Shown one piece after another: positions 5,513-62,612 of a stretch of 63,991 bases of DNA. The position numbers and the translations under genes were made by a program. Position 1 is the stretch's first letter. Every line of letters starts with the position of its first letter. The notes beneath the pieces are model-generated. The model was not told the origin of the DNA. It saw only the letters and a program-made list of their open reading frames with translations, and did no database searches. Source of the DNA: a virus (Duplodnaviria; Caudoviricetes); the IMG/VR virus record IMGVR_UViG_3300036780_000089, positions 1-63,991 of that record; one strand, 5' to 3'.

Positions 5513-6448
5513 TTACACCACATCGTCACGCCTGAATTCGGCGCCAATCCGGTCGGGGAAGTGCCGTTCTAGCCGGTACTTGGCCCACAGTCGGGCGGCG
5601 TCGGTCAACGCTGCCCGGTGCGGCATCGGGCGGTTGTGCAACAGCCATTCCCACACCCCGAGCACTTCCACCGCGAACAGCGTCACGGCCGGTTCCGGCA
5701 TCGCCCCCCACGCGGGTGTACGCGCCGCCCACCGCTCCGCGTCCAGCGGGGAATGCCCGGCGCTGATGAGTCGGATCACGAGAAACGCGGCATCCACCCA
5801 CGGCGCGGCCCGACGCGACCACGCCCAATCGATCAGCCGCGCGCGGCCACCGTCGATCATGATGTTGAGCGGCTGTACGTCGGTGTGGGCGAGGCTGTCA
5901 CCGCGCATGATGCTGATCGCGGCGGACTCGGCGTCATACCCGTAGATGAGAAGATCCCGTGTCCACGGGTCGAGATCAGGCGGGGTGTGGTTCAGCAACC
6001 GTTGCCATGCGCCTAGCCGTTCCCACTGGTCGGCGAAACTGGGCAGTTCGACGGGCGGGCAGGGTGTGAGCGTCACCTGTACCTCTGTGACCGCCGTGAT
6101 GATCAGCGGCAGATCAGCCGACCCCGGCCCGATATCCGCGTGCCGACCCGGTACATGCTCGAACCCGAGTAGCAGCCACCCAGCCGCCTCTACCTCCCAG
6201 AGCATCCGGGGCGCGACCGTGACCGGCAAGTAGCTGTTCACCCGAGCCTCGGTCCGATGGGTGACCGCGTTCGCCGAGTCGAGCTGAACGCCTTTCACGA
6301 ACACGCGTCCGGTGGCCGTGGTCAGCGACGCCGTGAAATCGGCATTGATCCCGGCGGACGCGTGCTCCACGCGGGAAACCTCCCCGCAACGCTCGACAAT
6401 GGCATGCCAGGCGTCGCCGGGGAGGTCTCTCAGGGCAGGATTGGTCAC
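5513..6448 (-). CDS. Aminoglycoside-phosphotransferase/kinase-like protein
   Basis: GRVFVKG, LGFEHVPGRHAD, LAHTDVQPLNIMI, LIDWAW; GTG at 6448 overlaps the upstream stop (GTGA). Confidence 0.85.
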   Translation of the reverse strand: MTNPALRDLPGDAWHAIVERCGEVSRVEHASAGINADFTASLTTATGRVFVKGVQLDSANAVTHRTEARVNSYLPVTVAPRMLWEVEAAGWLLLGFEHVPGRHADIGPGSADLPLIITAVTEVQVTLTPCPPVELPSFADQWERLGAWQRLLNHTPPDLDPWTRDLLIYGYDAESAAISIMRGDSLAHTDVQPLNIMIDGGRARLIDWAWSRRAAPWVDAAFLVIRLISAGHSPLDAERWAARTPAWGAMPEPAVTLFAVEVLGVWEWLLHNRPMPHRAALTDAARLWAKYRLERHFPDRIGAEFRRDDVV

Positions 6449-6912
6449 GCGTCGCAGCTTAGTTTTCCGCCCTGGCCACAGTTCGTGCAGCCGCCATGGC
6501 ATTGCGAGCACTTACCCGACGCCTGCGCCCACAGTTCCTCGTTGACGACGAATCCCGCGCCCCGCATGGCTTCTACCGTGGGGTTCAGCATCGCGCCCGC
6601 GTCGACGGGTGGCGTGAATTCCTCGGGTTCGTGGTGAAGGAATCGGCCCGCGACCCGCTGACAGAAGATCGCATACTCGGCGGTGTTCAGGATGAATGTA
6701 TGCCACGCGACGTCAACAGACTTGGACGGCCGTAGCCGCCCTCCGGGATTGTCAGCACAGGTTTTGATGAACGCCAAGGCTTGATCAAGAATGGCCTCGG
6801 CGTAGTCCTGCTCTACCCCCTCGTTGGCCACGATTTGCCTTACCAGGCGGTCAAACACTTCCGGGCGTAGCAGAGATCGCCCGACTGTGAGAACTTCCAT
6901 GGTCGACGTCAT
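6445..6912 (-). CDS. Glycine-rich-domain (GRDP-like) protein with Cys-rich C-terminal tail
   Basis: PSKSVDVAWHTFILNTAEYAIFCQRVAGRFLHHEP motif; tail CSQCHGGCTNCGQGGKLSC. Confidence 0.75.
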   Translation of the reverse strand: MTSTMEVLTVGRSLLRPEVFDRLVRQIVANEGVEQDYAEAILDQALAFIKTCADNPGGRLRPSKSVDVAWHTFILNTAEYAIFCQRVAGRFLHHEPEEFTPPVDAGAMLNPTVEAMRGAGFVVNEELWAQASGKCSQCHGGCTNCGQGGKLSCDA

Positions 6913-6971
6913 CGACTTGAATCCTTTCCTACGGGGGGTTGAGTCCGAATGTCAGCCGCGCGCAACCTCGG

Positions 6972-7277
6972 TTACGCGATCACCCGGCAGCTTGCGACGA
7001 CGGGGCCGACGTGGCGCGCGTGCCGCGTGGTCTCGGTCTCGATTTGCTTGCCTGCCGGGCGCACTGTGTTCGCAAGCGTGGTGCACGGCACGCACAGGGG
7101 ACGGGCGACGGTCCGCGCCATGGCGTCCGGGTCGGGCGTGCATACCTCGCCGTGTGTGTCGACGTCGGGCGGCCGGTTGGTCGTCGGGTCCACGGCCACG
7201 ACGGTCACACACTCCAGACAGAACGTGAATGATCTACCACACGAGTAGCAACCGGCTATCCCGCTGACCACGTCCAT
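6972..7277 (-). CDS. Cys-rich hypothetical protein (leaderless)
   Basis: CxxC pairs; TACATT hexamer 6 nt before the ATG. Confidence 0.6.
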   Translation of the reverse strand: MDVVSGIAGCYSCGRSFTFCLECVTVVAVDPTTNRPPDVDTHGEVCTPDPDAMARTVARPLCVPCTTLANTVRPAGKQIETETTRHARHVGPVVASCRVIA

Positions 7278-7470
7278 GGGTGCAATGTAGCAGCGGACAC
7301 GTGACCAGTCTGCTACAGACGGTAGCGAAGTGATTTGCTACTCGTACGCGTAACGGCACACGCACCGTAACCGACACATACCCTTGAACCGCGCGCAGAA
7401 AACCACCCCGGACCCCGGTGGCCCGCGCGGTTCCACCGTCGCTTTCTATGCGCTACCCAGGGGAAACACC

Positions 7471-54291: not shown

Positions 54292-54318
54292 TTTGGCGGC
54301 TACGGCTAGTGTGTGTGC

Positions 54319-55179
54319 ATGCCGAGCACACCGACCAAGCGACGCAAGCGCCTCGGCGCCTACCTGGCGAAGCTCCGGGACGACGTCGAGCGGACCGCCG
54401 ACGACGCGGCCGAGCTGCTGCACAAGCGGCAGAGTCAGGTCTCCAAGATCGAACTTGGCTACGTCCGGCCCGCGCACGCCGAGATGGTTGCTTTGCTGGC
54501 TTTCTACGGCGCCGATAAGGCTCAACGCGACCACGCGGAGACCTTGTGGAATGACGCCGGGCAAGATTCCCGACGAATTCAGGGGTCATCGGCAGTGCCA
54601 CCAAAGTTCCGCGCATTCTTGCGCAACGAGGCCGAGGCAGACTCCGAGGATGAACTAAACCGAATCACGGTACCTGGAATGCTGCAAACTCCGCGCTTTG
54701 CGAAAGCGTCGCGCGCAGCCGGTCACCGAATCGCCAACCCAAATGTCGGAGAGGAACGGGCAACGGCCGCTCGAATCGCTCGCCAAGATCTACTTCGCGG
54801 GTCGAGTCCGATTGAGTTTCGCGCCGTGGTCGATCAGGCGGTCATTGCCCGCGAGGTCGGCGGCCGAGATGTTATGGCCGAACAATTGGCCTACATTCTC
54901 GAAACGATGAACCTTGGCAATGTCAACGTTCATATCGTGCCGTTCGGCGCGGGGGCATACGGGGGAATGTCCGGCTCGTTCACGATCTTGGGGTACTCGG
55001 CACCAGAGGACCCCGACACCGTGTATTGCGAATACGAAGGAGGCGGCGACTGGTTTGATACGCCAAGCGACGTTGAGAAATTCAAGCTGATTTTTGAAGA
55101 CGCTAAAGAATTGGCGCTGTCTTCTGCGGAGTCGGCTGCGCTGATCGAACAAACGATGCGAAAGCTAGAGGGACGATGA
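54319..55179 (+). CDS. XRE HTH + DUF5753 regulator (WhiJ/Scr1-like), leaderless
   Basis: RRKRLGAYLAKLR, VSKIELG, VPGMLQTPRFA, VGGRDVMAEQL, VHIVPF, GSFTILGY; TAGTGT 6 nt before ATG. Confidence 0.92.
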   Translation: MPSTPTKRRKRLGAYLAKLRDDVERTADDAAELLHKRQSQVSKIELGYVRPAHAEMVALLAFYGADKAQRDHAETLWNDAGQDSRRIQGSSAVPPKFRAFLRNEAEADSEDELNRITVPGMLQTPRFAKASRAAGHRIANPNVGEERATAARIARQDLLRGSSPIEFRAVVDQAVIAREVGGRDVMAEQLAYILETMNLGNVNVHIVPFGAGAYGGMSGSFTILGYSAPEDPDTVYCEYEGGGDWFDTPSDVEKFKLIFEDAKELALSSAESAALIEQTMRKLEGR

Positions 55180-55388
55180 CCGTCTATAGCCCGTGGCACC
55201 GGAGTACCTACAGTGGCACTGACAACAATTGCGTGGAGACACGTTCGGCCGCCCACGACGATGGCTCAACCGAGGAACAAGTGCAAGACAGCAAAAACCC
55301 CGGTGGTGGCCACCTGTCATTTCACCCCAATCAATGGGCCGCTTTCCTTGACACTGTGACGCCAGTGCGGAAGCGACGTATCCGGTAA
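55176..55388 (+). CDS. DUF397 protein (BldB/Scr2-like)
   Basis: WHRSTYSG..NNCVE...VQDSKNP...WAAFL. Confidence 0.92.
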   Translation: MTVYSPWHRSTYSGTDNNCVETRSAAHDDGSTEEQVQDSKNPGGGHLSFHPNQWAAFLDTVTPVRKRRIR

Positions 55389-55679: not shown

Positions 55680-56054
55680 TTAGAAACGGTTCGCGACCGC
55701 CAGAAAATCGTGCTCGGCGGTGCTGATCGCGAGTAGTTGCGCCACCATGGACAACTCGATGTCCGCGTCTCGATAGATCGGGATATGTGCGCACAACTGT
55801 TGGCCGCTCGGCATCATGACCACGTTGCCGGTGACCCCGTGCCGAATCAGGTACATGCCGCCGTCGCTGCCGGTGCACAGAAACTCTTTGGTCGCGCCGT
55901 AGCGTTCCCGTTCGGACGATGGCAGCAACGAGAGCAACAGCGCCTCGGCGTGCGAGGTGTCGTGGTATGCCGCGTGCCGTTGCCGGTCGCGTTCCTCCCA
56001 CATGGCCATCAGATCGGCCCACCAAAACGTCGGCACCTTCACCGGGCCGGTCAC
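55680..56054 (-). CDS. Putative minimal E2-like (Cys88) protein
   Basis: GNVVMMPSGQQLCAH followed by two helices; GTGA-coupled to the GG-ending gene. ORF is secure, function inferred. Confidence 0.55.
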   Translation of the reverse strand: MTGPVKVPTFWWADLMAMWEERDRQRHAAYHDTSHAEALLLSLLPSSERERYGATKEFLCTGSDGGMYLIRHGVTGNVVMMPSGQQLCAHIPIYRDADIELSMVAQLLAISTAEHDFLAVANRF

Positions 56055-56350
56055 CCGCCCTGTAGCGGCCGGGATAGGACAATCGTCGGCGCCGACGCGT
56101 CGAACGCGTGCAACGTCACGTTCTCACCCGGTGCGCGGGTCGCGTAGGCGAGATATCCCCACTGCTTGCGGGATTGGAACACCTTGGCGGCCTCGGCCTC
56201 TGTGTTCGGGTCGCCGTAGGTCCACGTGACGACCGAGTGGTTTCCCTGGTCGCACACGTGCATGGTGTGTGTGCCGGTGTCGGCCTCGGCCGGTGTCGGC
56301 GGCGTTGGCGGCGGCGGGATCGTGTCTTCACGGTCAAGAGTGACGGTCAT
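56051..56350 (-). CDS. Putative ubiquitin-like (beta-grasp) protein ending in Gly-Gly
   Basis: RBS AGGAGA, ATG 56350, 99 aa; C-terminus TIVLSRPLQGG-stop resembles MoaD/ThiS VAFFPPVxGG. Confidence 0.65.
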   Translation of the reverse strand: MTVTLDREDTIPPPPTPPTPAEADTGTHTMHVCDQGNHSVVTWTYGDPNTEAEAAKVFQSRKQWGYLAYATRAPGENVTLHAFDASAPTIVLSRPLQGG

Positions 56351-56376: not shown

Positions 56377-56511
56377 TTACCCGGCCGCGAACAAGTCGCC
56401 GCAGTCGGTGCAACAGCACACACACGCCCGCAAGTCATGTAACGGGTTGCGCTGTTGCCGTTGCTCGTGTCTGTGTTGGCGCACAAGCGGATCGGTCGTT
56501 GGCACGGTCAC
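56377..56511 (-). CDS. 44-aa Cys-cluster microprotein
   Basis: GTGA-coupled; ACVCCCTDC. Confidence 0.55.
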   Translation of the reverse strand: MTVPTTDPLVRQHRHEQRQQRNPLHDLRACVCCCTDCGDLFAAG

Positions 56512-56849
56512 AGTGGCCCCAAATTCTGGTTGTGGCGCACGCGGTTGATCTCGTCGAGTATCCGTAGCGCTTCCTCTCGATAGGTTCCCCGCCACGACCC
56601 GGCCGTGATGCCCAGCAGCGGCGCGACGCCGCCGACCGCGCACCGTAGGGCGCATTCCATATGCACGGGCGCCGGGGCCGTGGTGAGCACGCCGCCCTGT
56701 ATCCGCAAGCCCGTAGTCAGGGCGCCGCGATCGTGCGGCATGATCGGCTCGGCGCACTGCACACACCGTTGCCCTACCGGCGTGGCGACCACGACGACGC
56801 CCGTGGTGTGCGCGTCCCACGGTCGGCCGAAGTAGGCGCGGGCGCTCAC
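56508..56849 (-). CDS. Zn-binding hypothetical protein
   Basis: YFGRPWDA...TPVGQRCVQCAEPI...HMECALR; GTGA-coupled. Confidence 0.7.
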   Translation of the reverse strand: MSARAYFGRPWDAHTTGVVVVATPVGQRCVQCAEPIMPHDRGALTTGLRIQGGVLTTAPAPVHMECALRCAVGGVAPLLGITAGSWRGTYREEALRILDEINRVRHNQNLGPL

Positions 56850-57028
56850 AACGCGTCCCAACCGTGCACCGGGCAATCCAGCCGCGTCACGTACACGGTG
56901 CGGCCCTCGGCATCGTGGACGTCATCACCGGCAGCCCTACCACCCGCGAACGTCATCCCTGAGCACACACAGCCCTGTGTATCGGCCGCCGTGCTGCCCG
57001 GCGCTGGCACCTCGGCGGGCGCCGTCAC
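56846..57028 (-). CDS. 60-aa CxC...CPxHG microprotein, paralog B
   Basis: PGS..A..QGCVC.GM...DAEGRTVYV.R.DCPVHGW. Confidence 0.75.
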   Translation of the reverse strand: MTAPAEVPAPGSTAADTQGCVCSGMTFAGGRAAGDDVHDAEGRTVYVTRLDCPVHGWDAL

Positions 57029-57207
57029 GGCGTTGTCCAGCCGTGTAGCGGGCAGTCTTCCCGCATCACGTACAGCGTGCGCCCCTCGGCATCGCGTGCG
57101 CCGCCCATGCACCCCCGGCCGTACGCGTTGTCCATACCGGGGCACAAACAGCCCTGAGCGTGGGCGTCGTCGCTGCCGGGCGGCGGCGGCTCAGTGGACA
57201 CCGTCAT
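57025..57207 (-). CDS. 60-aa CxC...CPxHG microprotein, paralog A
   Basis: PGS..A..QGCLC.GM...DAEGRTLYV.R.DCPLHGW. Confidence 0.75.
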   Translation of the reverse strand: MTVSTEPPPPGSDDAHAQGCLCPGMDNAYGRGCMGGARDAEGRTLYVMREDCPLHGWTTP

Positions 57208-57547: not shown

Positions 57548-57915
57548 GACGACGCTCCCTTGCGGCGGCGGCCGGTCTTGCGTGGCGGGTCGGCCTCGGC
57601 GGCGAGCATGCGTTGAATCTCCCAACGCCGCACCTCGCCCCGATTGATCGTGACGCCGGGCTCGGCCTTGTATCCGTCCGGGTAGACGTACTGACTGTGC
57701 AGCCGTTCGAACCGCGCGTTGACTCGGTCCACGCGTTGCGTGTCGCACACCGGGCAACGCCGCGTCTTTCGGTAGACGCGTTGCGCCCCGGCGCCCTCGA
57801 TAAACCAGTCGTGGGTTTCGGTGATCCACGGGTGGCCTAGCTCCCGACAGTCCACAAACCCATACCGGTCAAGGAAGTTGTCGACGGTCGCGGCGAGTGA
57901 GTGTCCAGCAGTCAT
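57544..57915 (-). CDS. Zn-binding hypothetical protein
   Basis: DCRELGHPW...RCPVCDT...YVYPDGY. Confidence 0.75.
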   Translation of the reverse strand: MTAGHSLAATVDNFLDRYGFVDCRELGHPWITETHDWFIEGAGAQRVYRKTRRCPVCDTQRVDRVNARFERLHSQYVYPDGYKAEPGVTINRGEVRRWEIQRMLAAEADPPRKTGRRRKGASS

Positions 57916-58514
57916 GACGCCACCCGGACGGGCGCCGAGGTGCGCGTGCGGCTAGCGGGTTTCTTCGCGGGCGCCTTGCGCGGCTTATGGTCGGAGAAAC
58001 GCGGCGCCATGTCCAACTCGGCTTGACCCGGATCGGTGTCCGACTCGGACGCCTCGGCGTCGGCATCCTCGGGTTCCGGCTCACGATGCCGATAGTTGGA
58101 CTGATGAGCCTTGCGCCACTTCGCGTACAGCGCACGGGGCAGCTTGCCGCGCTCACCCAAGCTTGGGTAGCCGTGGCCGATACCCCACTCGCGAATCTCT
58201 TGCCGCATCTCGTGATACCGCTTCTGTTCGGCCGGACTCGCGTCGTCCGGTGTACGCCACCATTCGTCATCCGTGCTGGTGTCGTCGTCAACGTGCGCGT
58301 GTGCCTCGGCGGCCTGGCGCGCGGACAACATCTTGGGCACCGTCCCGCGTTTGCGTGCGTGGGTAATCCAGAACGCCATTTCTTCCGTGATCTGTTCGGC
58401 GTTCCGCTCGCACAGGTCAATGTCGTACTCTTTACCGGCAAACGCGAACGAGATTGTTCGATCCGCGTCTGAGACCTTGTCGACGTCGTCGACCAGGCGC
58501 ACCATTTGTGCCAT
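57912..58514 (-). CDS. lsr2: Extended Lsr2-like protein
   Basis: LVDDVD...ISFAFAGKEYDIDL; EIREWG...GERGKLP. Confidence 0.82.
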   Translation of the reverse strand: MAQMVRLVDDVDKVSDADRTISFAFAGKEYDIDLCERNAEQITEEMAFWITHARKRGTVPKMLSARQAAEAHAHVDDDTSTDDEWWRTPDDASPAEQKRYHEMRQEIREWGIGHGYPSLGERGKLPRALYAKWRKAHQSNYRHREPEPEDADAEASESDTDPGQAELDMAPRFSDHKPRKAPAKKPASRTRTSAPVRVAS

Positions 58515-61004: not shown

Positions 61005-62612
61005 CTACGCGGCGGCGGACACCACCACGTCCGGCCGCGTGCGCGTCGGCACCTTGGGGCGAATCTCAATCGTTTCCGGGTAAAACCCGCTGCCACGCTG
61101 CCCGGACGGGTGGATCTTGACCGTCACCATGGTGTCGATCACCGCTCGCTTGATCGCCAACGGTTGCGCGTCCCACGCGGCGGCCACGTCCCGAGCGGCC
61201 AATAGCGGTAGCACGGGCGAGTCCTGCTCTACCGACGCGGCCAACGTCGTGTTGATCTCCTCTAGGCGGTTGTTCCCGCGCTCGATACCGTGCAAGTACT
61301 GCTCACGGGTAATGATCCGCGCGCCCCGGTCTGCGGCCAGTTCGTTCAGGCCGTCCCTGATCGCCGCCGCTTCCGCGTGCAACGCGCGGGCGTCCACCGC
61401 CGGGCCGGTCTCCACCGTGAACACCTCGGCCGCGTCCGGGCGCGACAGACGCTCAATGATCACGTCGCGTACAAACAAGTCGAGCCGTTCCGCGTTGCGC
61501 GTCAAGTGATTCTTGCCCTTGCACGCGTAGCGCGGCGAACGGCCCTTACCGCCCGACACCCAACACGTCGTGCCATCGTCACAGATACCGCACCGGTAGA
61601 TGCCGGAACCCTGCCAGCGCGGCGTAGCGCCCTGCTCAGCGTTCGTGCGCCGACTCGGGTCGGTCAGCACCCGCACCACGGCCCGGAAGACCGGTTCCGG
61701 CACGATCGGCAACCACGGCGCCGGGCCGATTTCCTCGCCCCGGTGTTCCATGATCCCGGCGTTGCGCGGGCGCAACAGAATGTCCCGTAGCGTCGCCGCC
61801 GTCCACGCTGCGCCGGTCACGGTCGGCACCTCGGCCGCGCGCAACTCGGCGGCCAACAGGCGCAGCGACGTCAGCTTGCCCGCCCGGTGTGCGCGTCCGT
61901 CGATTTTCAGCACGCGGTGCGACGCCACGTTAATGATCATGCATTCGTCCCACCGTTTGGTGATCCCGTCCGACTCGAATCCGAACCGGCGCGGGCCACC
62001 ACCGAATTCGTTCGCGCGCGCCTTGCGTTCCCGGCCCTCGGCGACCCGCCGCGACGTGTCCAAGCTGGACTTGTTCGCGATCGTGACCAGGAACCGTGCC
62101 ATCGTGATCTCGGAATCCGTGCCGCCATCGGTCAAGGTCAGCGAACTGGACACCGAACGCGCGTTCGCTTTCGTCGTGCGCACGGCCGCGATCAGATCTT
62201 CACAGTCGTACGGGTCACGCATCGTCCGGTCAAGATCTTCCGTGAGCAGCGCGTCATACGTACCGTCCGCGATACCGCGCACGATCCGCTGAAAACCCGG
62301 ACGGATCACGCGGAAGATGACCGACCCGTCCGCTTGGGTGATCTTGCGCCGCTTGAACGCGGACGCGTTGCGCTGCTTGCCGCCCTCACGTCGTGCGACG
62401 TCGTTTTCAATGATCACGTCAACAACGGTCCAGCCGTGGCGCGCGGCCAGTTCGCGGACAGCGGACTCACGGGCGCCGAACGTCTTGGCCTCGCCCTGGT
62501 CGTTCAGGTCGGCGTCATCAAGATCACTCAGACGCAGGTAGATGACGCACCGCTGCCCCGGACGGGTGAGCAGGGTCGTTGCGGCGGCGGCGGGCCGACG
62601 TGTGCGAGACAT
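61005..62612 (-). CDS. int: Large serine recombinase (integrase)
   Basis: IYLRLS catalytic Ser, RPGFQRIV, DLDRTMRD, RRFGF, LLRPRNAG, Zn ribbon CGIC...YAC...H, coiled coil. Confidence 0.95.
   Translation of the reverse strand: MSRTRRPAAAATTLLTRPGQRCVIYLRLSDLDDADLNDQGEAKTFGARESAVRELAARHGWTVVDVIIENDVARREGGKQRNASAFKRRKITQADGSVIFRVIRPGFQRIVRGIADGTYDALLTEDLDRTMRDPYDCEDLIAAVRTTKANARSVSSSLTLTDGGTDSEITMARFLVTIANKSSLDTSRRVAEGRERKARANEFGGGPRRFGFESDGITKRWDECMIINVASHRVLKIDGRAHRAGKLTSLRLLAAELRAAEVPTVTGAAWTAATLRDILLRPRNAGIMEHRGEEIGPAPWLPIVPEPVFRAVVRVLTDPSRRTNAEQGATPRWQGSGIYRCGICDDGTTCWVSGGKGRSPRYACKGKNHLTRNAERLDLFVRDVIIERLSRPDAAEVFTVETGPAVDARALHAEAAAIRDGLNELAADRGARIITREQYLHGIERGNNRLEEINTTLAASVEQDSPVLPLLAARDVAAAWDAQPLAIKRAVIDTMVTVKIHPSGQRGSGFYPETIEIRPKVPTRTRPDVVVSAAA

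Follow-up and report, generated by a model that had tools for sequence, protein, structure and literature searches.

What would a putative ubiquitin-type protein and a cysteine-bearing partner do in a phage that encodes no activating enzyme for them? The question is raised by two overlapping open reading frames (ORFs), A and B, in the IMG/VR virus record IMGVR_UViG_3300036780_000089 (Duplodnaviria; Caudoviricetes), which is a prophage and which was analysed over its whole stretch of 63,991 bases (65.6% G+C; hereafter the window). The original prediction, made from the letters of this stretch, had taken A for a beta-grasp ubiquitin-like protein (Ubl) and B for a stripped-down E2 conjugating enzyme, the phage having no E1 activating enzyme of its own. 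From family searches, locus comparisons and structure models, we hold with high confidence that A and B are a conserved interacting module, and the pair is also present in many other, uncultured phages as well as in some Actinomycetota. More tentatively, at a probability of about 0.45, we read it as a covalent pair of a Ubl and an E2-like carrier that borrows a cellular E1.

A Gly-Gly protein and a cysteine protein encoded as a pair

Both genes are encoded on the minus strand, with the following features:

56051..56350, minus: ORF A, 99 aa, starting at ATG and reading 56350->56051, C-terminus ...TIVLSRPLQGG followed by TGA
56054..56059, minus: Gly98-Gly99 codons of A, immediately 5′ of the stop
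56051..56054, minus: GTGA overlap of the ORF A stop and the ORF B start, made of the G of the last Gly codon and TGA
55680..56054, minus: ORF B, 124 aa, with its GTG start within the GTGA overlap
55791..55793, minus: Cys88 codon of B, computed from the ORF start at 56054

The coordinates of the two ORFs, the Gly-Gly end and the GTGA overlap were confirmed as originally given, and the overlap is, judged on its sequence, a translational coupling. An AGGAGA lies a few bases 5′ of the ATG of ORF A, a longer alternative frame of 124 aa can also be read from a GTG at 56425, and P0003, the closest homologue of B, starts four codons downstream of B's start. ORF A is laid out as a Pro-rich, non-conserved leader (residues ~1–25) and a conserved core (~26–99) with a free LQGG end, so that it carries directly before its stop the C-terminal Gly-Gly by which ubiquitin-like modifiers and carriers are recognised; by chance, Gly-Gly ends occur in 11 of the 953 six-frame ORFs of at least 40 aa in the window.

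A direct protein search with B yielded three close relatives, and a profile search of 1.84 billion representatives yielded 986 proteins at E ≤ 1e-3, of which 59 reach E ≤ 1e-10, the best 150 of the 986 being inspected as the B family. Most homologues are ~200 aa long and carry the B domain at the C-terminus. In the alignment A2, composed of 133 B members from the top of the match list after 21 of the 154 proteins P0002–P0155 had been excluded for a length above 260 aa, N77 and C88 are invariant (133/133 each), and G62, G65, Y68, G73, H90, Q106, L108, E114, F117 and A121 are near-invariant (consensus LLxSLL...Y....F.V.GS.GG.Y.I..G..GN[VI]....G....CAHP....LP..D.M.AQ.L.L.TDE..FL..AN). H90 was found in 126 of the 133, and the close subfamily is thus characterised by C-x-H. 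Distant genomic subfamilies have lost N77 and H90, e.g. ...G--VVRL...CIEA and ...RPVAVYE...CIRP, and keep the cysteine, the Pro-containing turn, the last helix and the Gly-Gly partner; Cys88 is the sole residue kept in every B homologue having such a partner. The original prediction had equated N77...C88 with the HPN...C of E2 enzymes, an equation that is unsupported because the Asn is lost in distant subfamilies retaining both the cysteine and the Gly-Gly partner, but the weight it placed on Cys88 is borne out by A2 and by all distant homologues with an A-like partner. Ser at the cysteine position was seen in a single case, the B-like ORF of L025 (G292:C129, E 1.6e-17), which is also the sole complete locus without an A-like neighbour. 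A SWIM-like zinc site formed by C-x-H of B was considered and rejected, as a second Cys pair is absent and the His is not universal. A peptide-pattern search with B, P0006 and P0013 over phage records, IMG/VR and the contigs of JGI metagenomes and GTDB gave no match, and a language-model Atlas search with B returned unnamed clusters only (0.90–0.91, low recognition).

Direct searches with A recovered only A itself, whether by k-mer protein search, by tblastn/blastn on 50,697 phage records or by pattern scanning of IMG/VR; comparison of A and B with Pfam and PHROGs gave chance-level rows only, and A is tied to its family solely through the neighbours of B homologues. The small ORFs upstream of B homologues align to A residues 26–99 without real gaps, and BLASTP of A with the one at locus L004 gave 37% identity (E 6e-13). 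A hidden Markov model (HMM) of eight such small ORFs, built with A excluded, scored A at E 1.2e-13 (46.7 bits) and the next of the 953 window ORFs at 0.086, and A is therefore not an orphan. A joint A profile then retrieved 363 proteins at E ≤ 1e-3, for which no Pfam domain is recorded; the best 120 of these were inspected, and on the best 119 the endings were counted. An exact GG end was found in 115 of the 119, the others ending in AG (2), SG (1) and GGV (1). The commonest endings are LVGG, MVGG, MQGG, HQGG and LQGG, namely a hydrophobic residue, any residue and Gly-Gly, which recalls the LRGG of ubiquitin. Among the A-like neighbours of B homologues, 21 of 23 end in GG (viral 10/12, genomic 11/11), so the terminal Gly-Gly singled out in the original prediction is conserved in the family as well as beside B.

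Co-inheritance of the two genes was examined with a degenerate DNA pattern, back-translated from the conserved motif in the final helix of B and scanned over IMG/VR. The pattern located 12 loci, all of which have a B-family ORF (12/12); at nine of them B is immediately preceded, on the same strand, by a small ORF ending in GG, SG or AG, and in the other three the sequence breaks off at the B gene or close to it. The reciprocal scan with an A-family motif added three viral loci, and in all of them (3/3) a B-family ORF follows directly downstream. Altogether, an A-like gene precedes B on the same strand in 12 of 15 viral loci, the remaining three being cut upstream, and the 12 products end in GG (10), SG (1) and AG (1). 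When the B pattern was scanned over GTDB species genomes, two contigs were found, one from a Mycobacterium metagenome-assembled genome (MAG) and one, a fragment only, from an uncultured Actinomycetota MAG; the B profile was matched in 26 of 301 sampled Actinomycetota genomes, a sample centred on the Mycobacterium MAG. In 11 of 12 genomic loci, taken from 12 genomes, B is preceded by an A-like ORF, and all 11 products end in GG (one of these loci, L029, is from a genome flagged unpublished). The adjacency on which the original prediction had relied thus extends to both viral and Actinomycetota loci. The B frame is open at, or a few bases from, the A-like stop in all paired loci apart from G012:C368 and from L002/L010, whose A and B are separated by a third small gene. 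An all-versus-all comparison of the ORFs at 25 loci produced a B cluster of 25, an A cluster of 22 and a next cluster of 4.

The pair is also found in chromosomal surroundings. At L032, L033 and L035 (G150, G020 and G136) a distant subfamily, in which A ends in RPLAGG and B has CIRP, is syntenic on the chromosome, with tsaD, groES/groEL, NlpC/P60 hydrolase, SCP2, glyoxalase, SDR/dehydrogenase and metallo-beta-lactamase-fold genes as neighbours; given such syntenic copies in three genomes, the module is not only a phage accessory. The idea that A is a split-off N-terminal region of the long B proteins was rejected, because an A-like gene stands beside the long forms too. In the Mycobacterium MAG, contig C617 of G012 carries three tandem B paralogues (5649–7431, minus strand), and no A-family profile match was found on that contig.

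Predicted folds and the modelled complex

An AlphaFold2 model of B based on the 133 sequences reached a predicted local distance difference test (pLDDT) score of 89.7 and contains helices at 10–31, 35–43 and 46–55, strands at 57–61, 67–71, 78–81 and 85–88, and a helix at 99–120. The predicted arrangement of helix, four-stranded meander and long helix is reminiscent of UBC/RWD domains, a likeness that may reflect homology. By strand layout rather than residue-level superposition, Cys88 closes strand 4 and belongs to a CAH(I)P turn; a loop and helix 99–120 follow. The N77...C88 segment described in the original prediction is present, and what follows Cys88 is a single long helix (99–120) instead of the two helices that had been expected. 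In BFVD, B's fold was found in two unnamed viral proteins, A0A1P8DIP4 (268 aa) and A0A1P8DIR1 (245 aa), with Foldseek E-values of 6.7e-6 and 1e-3 and query template-modelling (TM) scores of 0.63 and 0.58, respectively; from their close accession numbers, these may be two paralogues of one virus.

For A, the core was modelled at pLDDT 85–86 in the complex run described below. Co-variation within the A family was analysed on 120 sequences, with an effective number (Neff) of ~91 and a correspondingly noisy signal, by retaining pairs in the top 40 of both mutual information (MI) and mean-field direct coupling analysis (DCA). The pairs 30–92 and 32–94 place strand 1 parallel to strand 5, 71–91/71–93 place strand 3 antiparallel to strand 5, and 69–79 or 70–81 join strands 3 and 4. 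Such pairings are required by a beta-grasp and are suggestive, within that noise, of the 2-1-5-3-4 sheet of ubiquitin-like proteins, a mixed sheet lying across a helix. The Atlas search offers a lead only, the named cluster nearest to the A-family member P0213 being ThiS (0.77 by features; Atlas model predicted TM score (pTM) 0.72). On these models and pairings, A is probably a beta-grasp ubiquitin-like protein.

The A–B complex was predicted from alignments of our own (A2 on the B side, and A5, covering residues 24–99, on the A side). Three runs gave interaction prediction scores from aligned errors (ipSAE) of 0.71, 0.70 and 0.69 versus 0.00–0.01 in three controls; 58 of 80 solved complexes attain this ipSAE mark, as do 2 of 110 mismatched pairs, a comparison that is approximate because own alignments were used here. 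Contacts agreed between runs by at least 86%, with partner pLDDT of at least 85. The interface comprises residues 31, 33, 35–38, 67, 69, 71, 74–75, 77–79, 89, 91 and the tail 93–99 on A, and part of 35–45, 60, 75–76, 88–92, 94–98, 101–113, 117 and 120–122 on B, with Leu96 of A set against B residues 89–91, 102, 105–106, 109, 117 and 120. In the predicted complex, one face of the A sheet packs on the long C-terminal helix of B, and the tail lies in a groove ending at the Cys88-Ala-His-Ile-Pro turn; the docking of the Gly-Gly tail at Cys88, proposed as a check in the original prediction, is reproduced in so far as the model sets the tail beside this residue. The model resembles closed E2~ubiquitin, in which the Ile44 face of ubiquitin rests on the crossover helix.

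Activation, rival explanations and known systems

The free Gly-Gly end, the universal cysteine and the predicted geometry together point to chemistry at the carboxylate of A. In the covalent reading, the leading one, the C-terminal Gly of A would be activated in trans by a cellular adenylating enzyme of the ThiF/MoeB/MoeZ type, the activated A would be handed to Cys88 of B as a thioester, and A would then be delivered from B to a target, which the variable N-terminal region of long-form B may choose. Consistent with the absence of E1 and JAB noted in the original prediction, no ThiF-type E1 and no Prok-JAB was found in the 63,991-base record, the record-wide protease search having been confined to the latter family. 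Among 10 other pair-bearing viral records, one has a ThiF-family ORF (G002, the record of L003, 141756–142286, plus strand, E 4.3e-15). In all five pair-bearing genomes examined ThiF genes exist, either carried by a different contig or separated from the pair by 0.5 Mb or more, and across the 25 loci there is no widely shared third gene, hence no conserved operon E1 or JAB.

Several results weigh against this covalent reading. Pfam scans of B and the 133 members gave no UQ_con, Prok-E2_A-E, RWD or UEV match even at E up to 1–10, PADLOC had no match for the pair, a PDB profile search with the B family found no match, and hhalign of the B domain against Prok-E2_B returned a probability of 1.3% on a shallow template of two sequences, drawn from three matches in 201 genomes. 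No HPN motif is present in B, in whose family neither N77 nor H90 is universal, and Cys88, at the end of strand 4, is near the canonical E2 cysteine position, between strand 4 and the crossover helix, yet not at it by strand layout. Foldseek of the B model against PDB yielded nothing at E ≤ 1e-3, nor was an E2 among its top 50 entries. The assignment of B to the E2 enzymes in the original prediction found no support from sequence comparison. For A, the ubiquitin-clan Pfam models (ubiquitin, ThiS, Prok_Ub) matched 0 of 120 family members at E ≤ 1, and a PDB profile search with the family gave no ubiquitin-clan match. The single-sequence AlphaFold2 model of A reproduced the strand-strand-helix-strand-strand-strand order that had been read after the Pro-rich leader, but with low confidence (pLDDT 57.5). 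Foldseek of this model against PDB gave nothing at E ≤ 1e-3, and the top 50 of a VIA-wide fold list contained no ubiquitin, ThiS or MoaD, being mostly split-barrel flavin-binding and tail-tube proteins; at such a pLDDT the fold searches are uninformative and are not evidence of another fold, and the beta-grasp assignment gained no confident stand-alone model and no beta-grasp protein from them. The complex model supports binding, with a score that is a confidence of prediction and not a measurement, and is silent on a covalent bond. No activating enzyme is linked to the pair in the records and genomes examined, and since a free carboxylate needs ATP-dependent activation, the host-E1 step is one that we purely infer.

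Among the other explanations, a non-covalent pair is possible, though we consider it rather unlikely. B would then be an enzyme, a receptor or a toxic protein whose groove is filled by the Gly-Gly tail of A, acting as inhibitor or antidote, chaperone or regulatory subunit. The strong predicted interface, the translational coupling of a small upstream gene to a larger downstream one, the mobility of the pair among phages, MAGs and chromosomes, the lack of an activating enzyme nearby and the tandem B paralogues on one G012 contig would all suit such a pair. However, an exact C-terminal GG in 115 of 119 is stricter than binding usually demands and is a hallmark of a reacting terminal carboxylate, the one universal residue of B is a cysteine adjoining A's tail, and no toxin or antitoxin family of PADLOC or Pfam was matched. 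An improbable alternative is a sulfur carrier of the Urm1 kind, in which a MoeZ-type E1-rhodanese makes a thiocarboxylate on A and the cysteine of B takes the sulfur, or else conjugation proceeds through an acyl-disulfide at that cysteine; B would be akin to MoaE, ThiG, CysM or the targets of Urm1 rather than to E2. The predicted insertion of the GG tail into a partner pocket, much as MoaD sits in MoaE, is in line with it, as are the ThiS cluster nearest to P0213, again a lead only, and the Actinomycetota chromosomal copies among housekeeping genes. A precedent exists in Urm1, whose conjugation is reported to be independent of E2/E3 and coupled to cysteine persulfidation (PMC9574740). Pfam comparison of B and its 133 members showed no MoaE, ThiG, CysM or rhodanese family, though, no conserved sulfur-metabolism gene lies beside the pair, and a reason for which phages would so often carry a sulfur carrier is not evident.

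Still less probable, in our estimate, is a decoy or counter-defence role, also raised in the original prediction, by which a phage Ubl or E2-like protein would soak up or misdirect a host Ubl defence such as Bil. The position of the pair behind Lsr2, within the prophage's accessory early region, the prevalence of the family in viral records, and the action of known bacterial Ubl systems in phage defence (10.1101/2024.11.21.623953; PMC10557695) are compatible with such a role. It fits poorly, however, with the syntenic chromosomal copies beside the housekeeping genes groEL, NlpC/P60, SCP2, glyoxalase and SDR in three genomes; A and B stay partners everywhere, which suggests an autonomous function, and in sequence they resemble no component of Bil, Bub or Cap2. 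That the ORFs are chance ones, or a pair without joint function, has a negligible probability: high-GC DNA is rich in spurious ORFs, but the G+C at third codon positions (GC3) is 0.78 and 0.82 for ORFs A and B, as in other genes of the record, both families are large, and their adjacency is conserved.

Set beside the known systems, the pair shows partial likenesses to each. Bil (BilABCD) reportedly represents types 6C/6D of Iyer, Burroughs and Aravind 2006. Bil is like the pair in having a small Ubl that acts via its C-terminal Gly and a minimal E2-like protein with a catalytic Cys and a nearby His; BilB has Cys138 and His151 and lacks the C-terminal helices of canonical E2s (PMC10557695). The Cys-then-His order of type 6d/BilB is echoed by C-x-H in the close B subfamily (126/133), with the His not universal in the B family (PMC10557695; PMC1779556). 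Every Bil operon contains genes for an E1 and a JAB protease, and BilA has to be trimmed before its Gly is exposed (PMC10557695), whereas our pair has neither E1 nor JAB, its GG is already terminal, and a sequence relation to Bil is undetectable. Bub likewise combines a Ubl with a diverged E2-like protein in bacteria; it differs in using a peptidase-E1 fusion and oxyester (serine) intermediates (10.1101/2024.11.21.623953), whereas B keeps its Cys and has no linked E1. The lambda-type tail assembly protein I is a phage beta-grasp Ubl encoded with a JAB-NlpC/P60 protein (PMC1779556); unlike our pair, which lies in an early/accessory region with a Cys partner and no JAB, it belongs to a tail gene cluster with a JAB peptidase. 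The characterised Ubl-conjugating systems Bil, Bub and Cap2 all encode an E1 and most a protease (PMC10557695; PMC1779556; 10.1101/2024.11.21.623953).

The stand-alone-E2 (CdnG-E2) type of cyclic-oligonucleotide-based antiphage signalling system (CBASS) shares the absence of an E1 with the pair, but Cap2/CdnG-E2 conjugates the C-terminus of the cGAS/DncV-like nucleotidyltransferase (CD-NTase) itself and not a separate GG protein; no CD-NTase stands beside the pair, and the PADLOC models gave no match. RWD/UEV domains resemble the predicted layout of B in their helix, four-stranded meander, Pro-containing turn and helix; they lack a catalytic Cys and are mostly eukaryotic, whereas the one universal residue of B is a Cys. 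In MoaD-MoaE, ThiS-ThiG, CysO-CysM and SAMP/Urm1 the tail of a GG protein enters a partner pocket and the E1 is encoded elsewhere and shared; unlike these, B matches no such partner family and A no ThiS or MoaD Pfam model.

As E2 and ubiquitin sequence models recognise neither protein, A and B are filed in neither clan; the pair probably looks and works like a Ubl–E2 pair. In a literature search that left aside the Bil and Bub supplementary tables, which possibly list operon families, no description was found of an E1-less Gly-Gly protein with a Cys partner in phages, and the pair may be an undescribed minimal protein-tagging module. Bil, Bub and CBASS Cap2 carry their own E1 and defend against phages, whereas here a Gly-Gly protein and a Cys partner stand alone, in a module that is mainly phage-borne and also syntenic on some Actinomycetota chromosomes, from two large families (986 and at least 363 clusters) that no Pfam or PADLOC model covers. 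If the pair conjugates, it would represent a new minimal design and a phage-side ubiquitin-type chemistry, and the way in which an E2 step arose would become open to testing. Should the two proteins do no more than bind each other, they still form a two-protein module that is widespread and unnamed, and for which there is a clear structural hypothesis, the tail lying in a groove by one cysteine. A further proposal, which we regard as doubtful, is that the pair is a conjugation system with no dedicated E1 at all, served by a host sulfur-pathway E1 or a new activation route and spread by phages to tag host or phage proteins; were this true, it would be the smallest ubiquitin-type system known and could be a living example of the E2 step first added to ThiS/MoaD-type chemistry.

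Neighbouring genes

The pair lies downstream of an Lsr2 gene, as the original prediction had it, and of several small ORFs, all on the same strand; just downstream of B, a DUF5753/DUF397 gene pair converges on it:

57912-58514, minus: Lsr2 gene
54313-55388, plus: DUF5753-helix-turn-helix (HTH) regulator (288 aa) and DUF397 protein (70 aa), with stop/start overlap
61005-62612: serine integrase, a gene of the record

The DUF5753-HTH/DUF397 gene pair is typical of Streptomyces-like actinomycetes.

In four viral loci a third small gene, whose product ends in ...GWPP.., is located near the pair:

L002 9382-9741 and L010 1942-2301: between A and B
L005 59-538: upstream of B
L004 81-587: downstream of B

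Directly upstream of A in the window, a 122-aa ORF (56508–56876, minus strand), which has no Pfam match and is absent from the other pair-carrying loci compared, contains a C-x2-C ... H-x2-C-x3-C arrangement (CVQC ... HMECALRC) and may encode a small zinc-binding protein. At 56846–57207 (minus strand), two adjoining small ORFs without Pfam matches encode paralogous Cys-rich peptides (...QGC[LV]C...AEGRT[LV]YV...DCP[LV]HGW), which appear to stem from a tandem duplication within the early operon.

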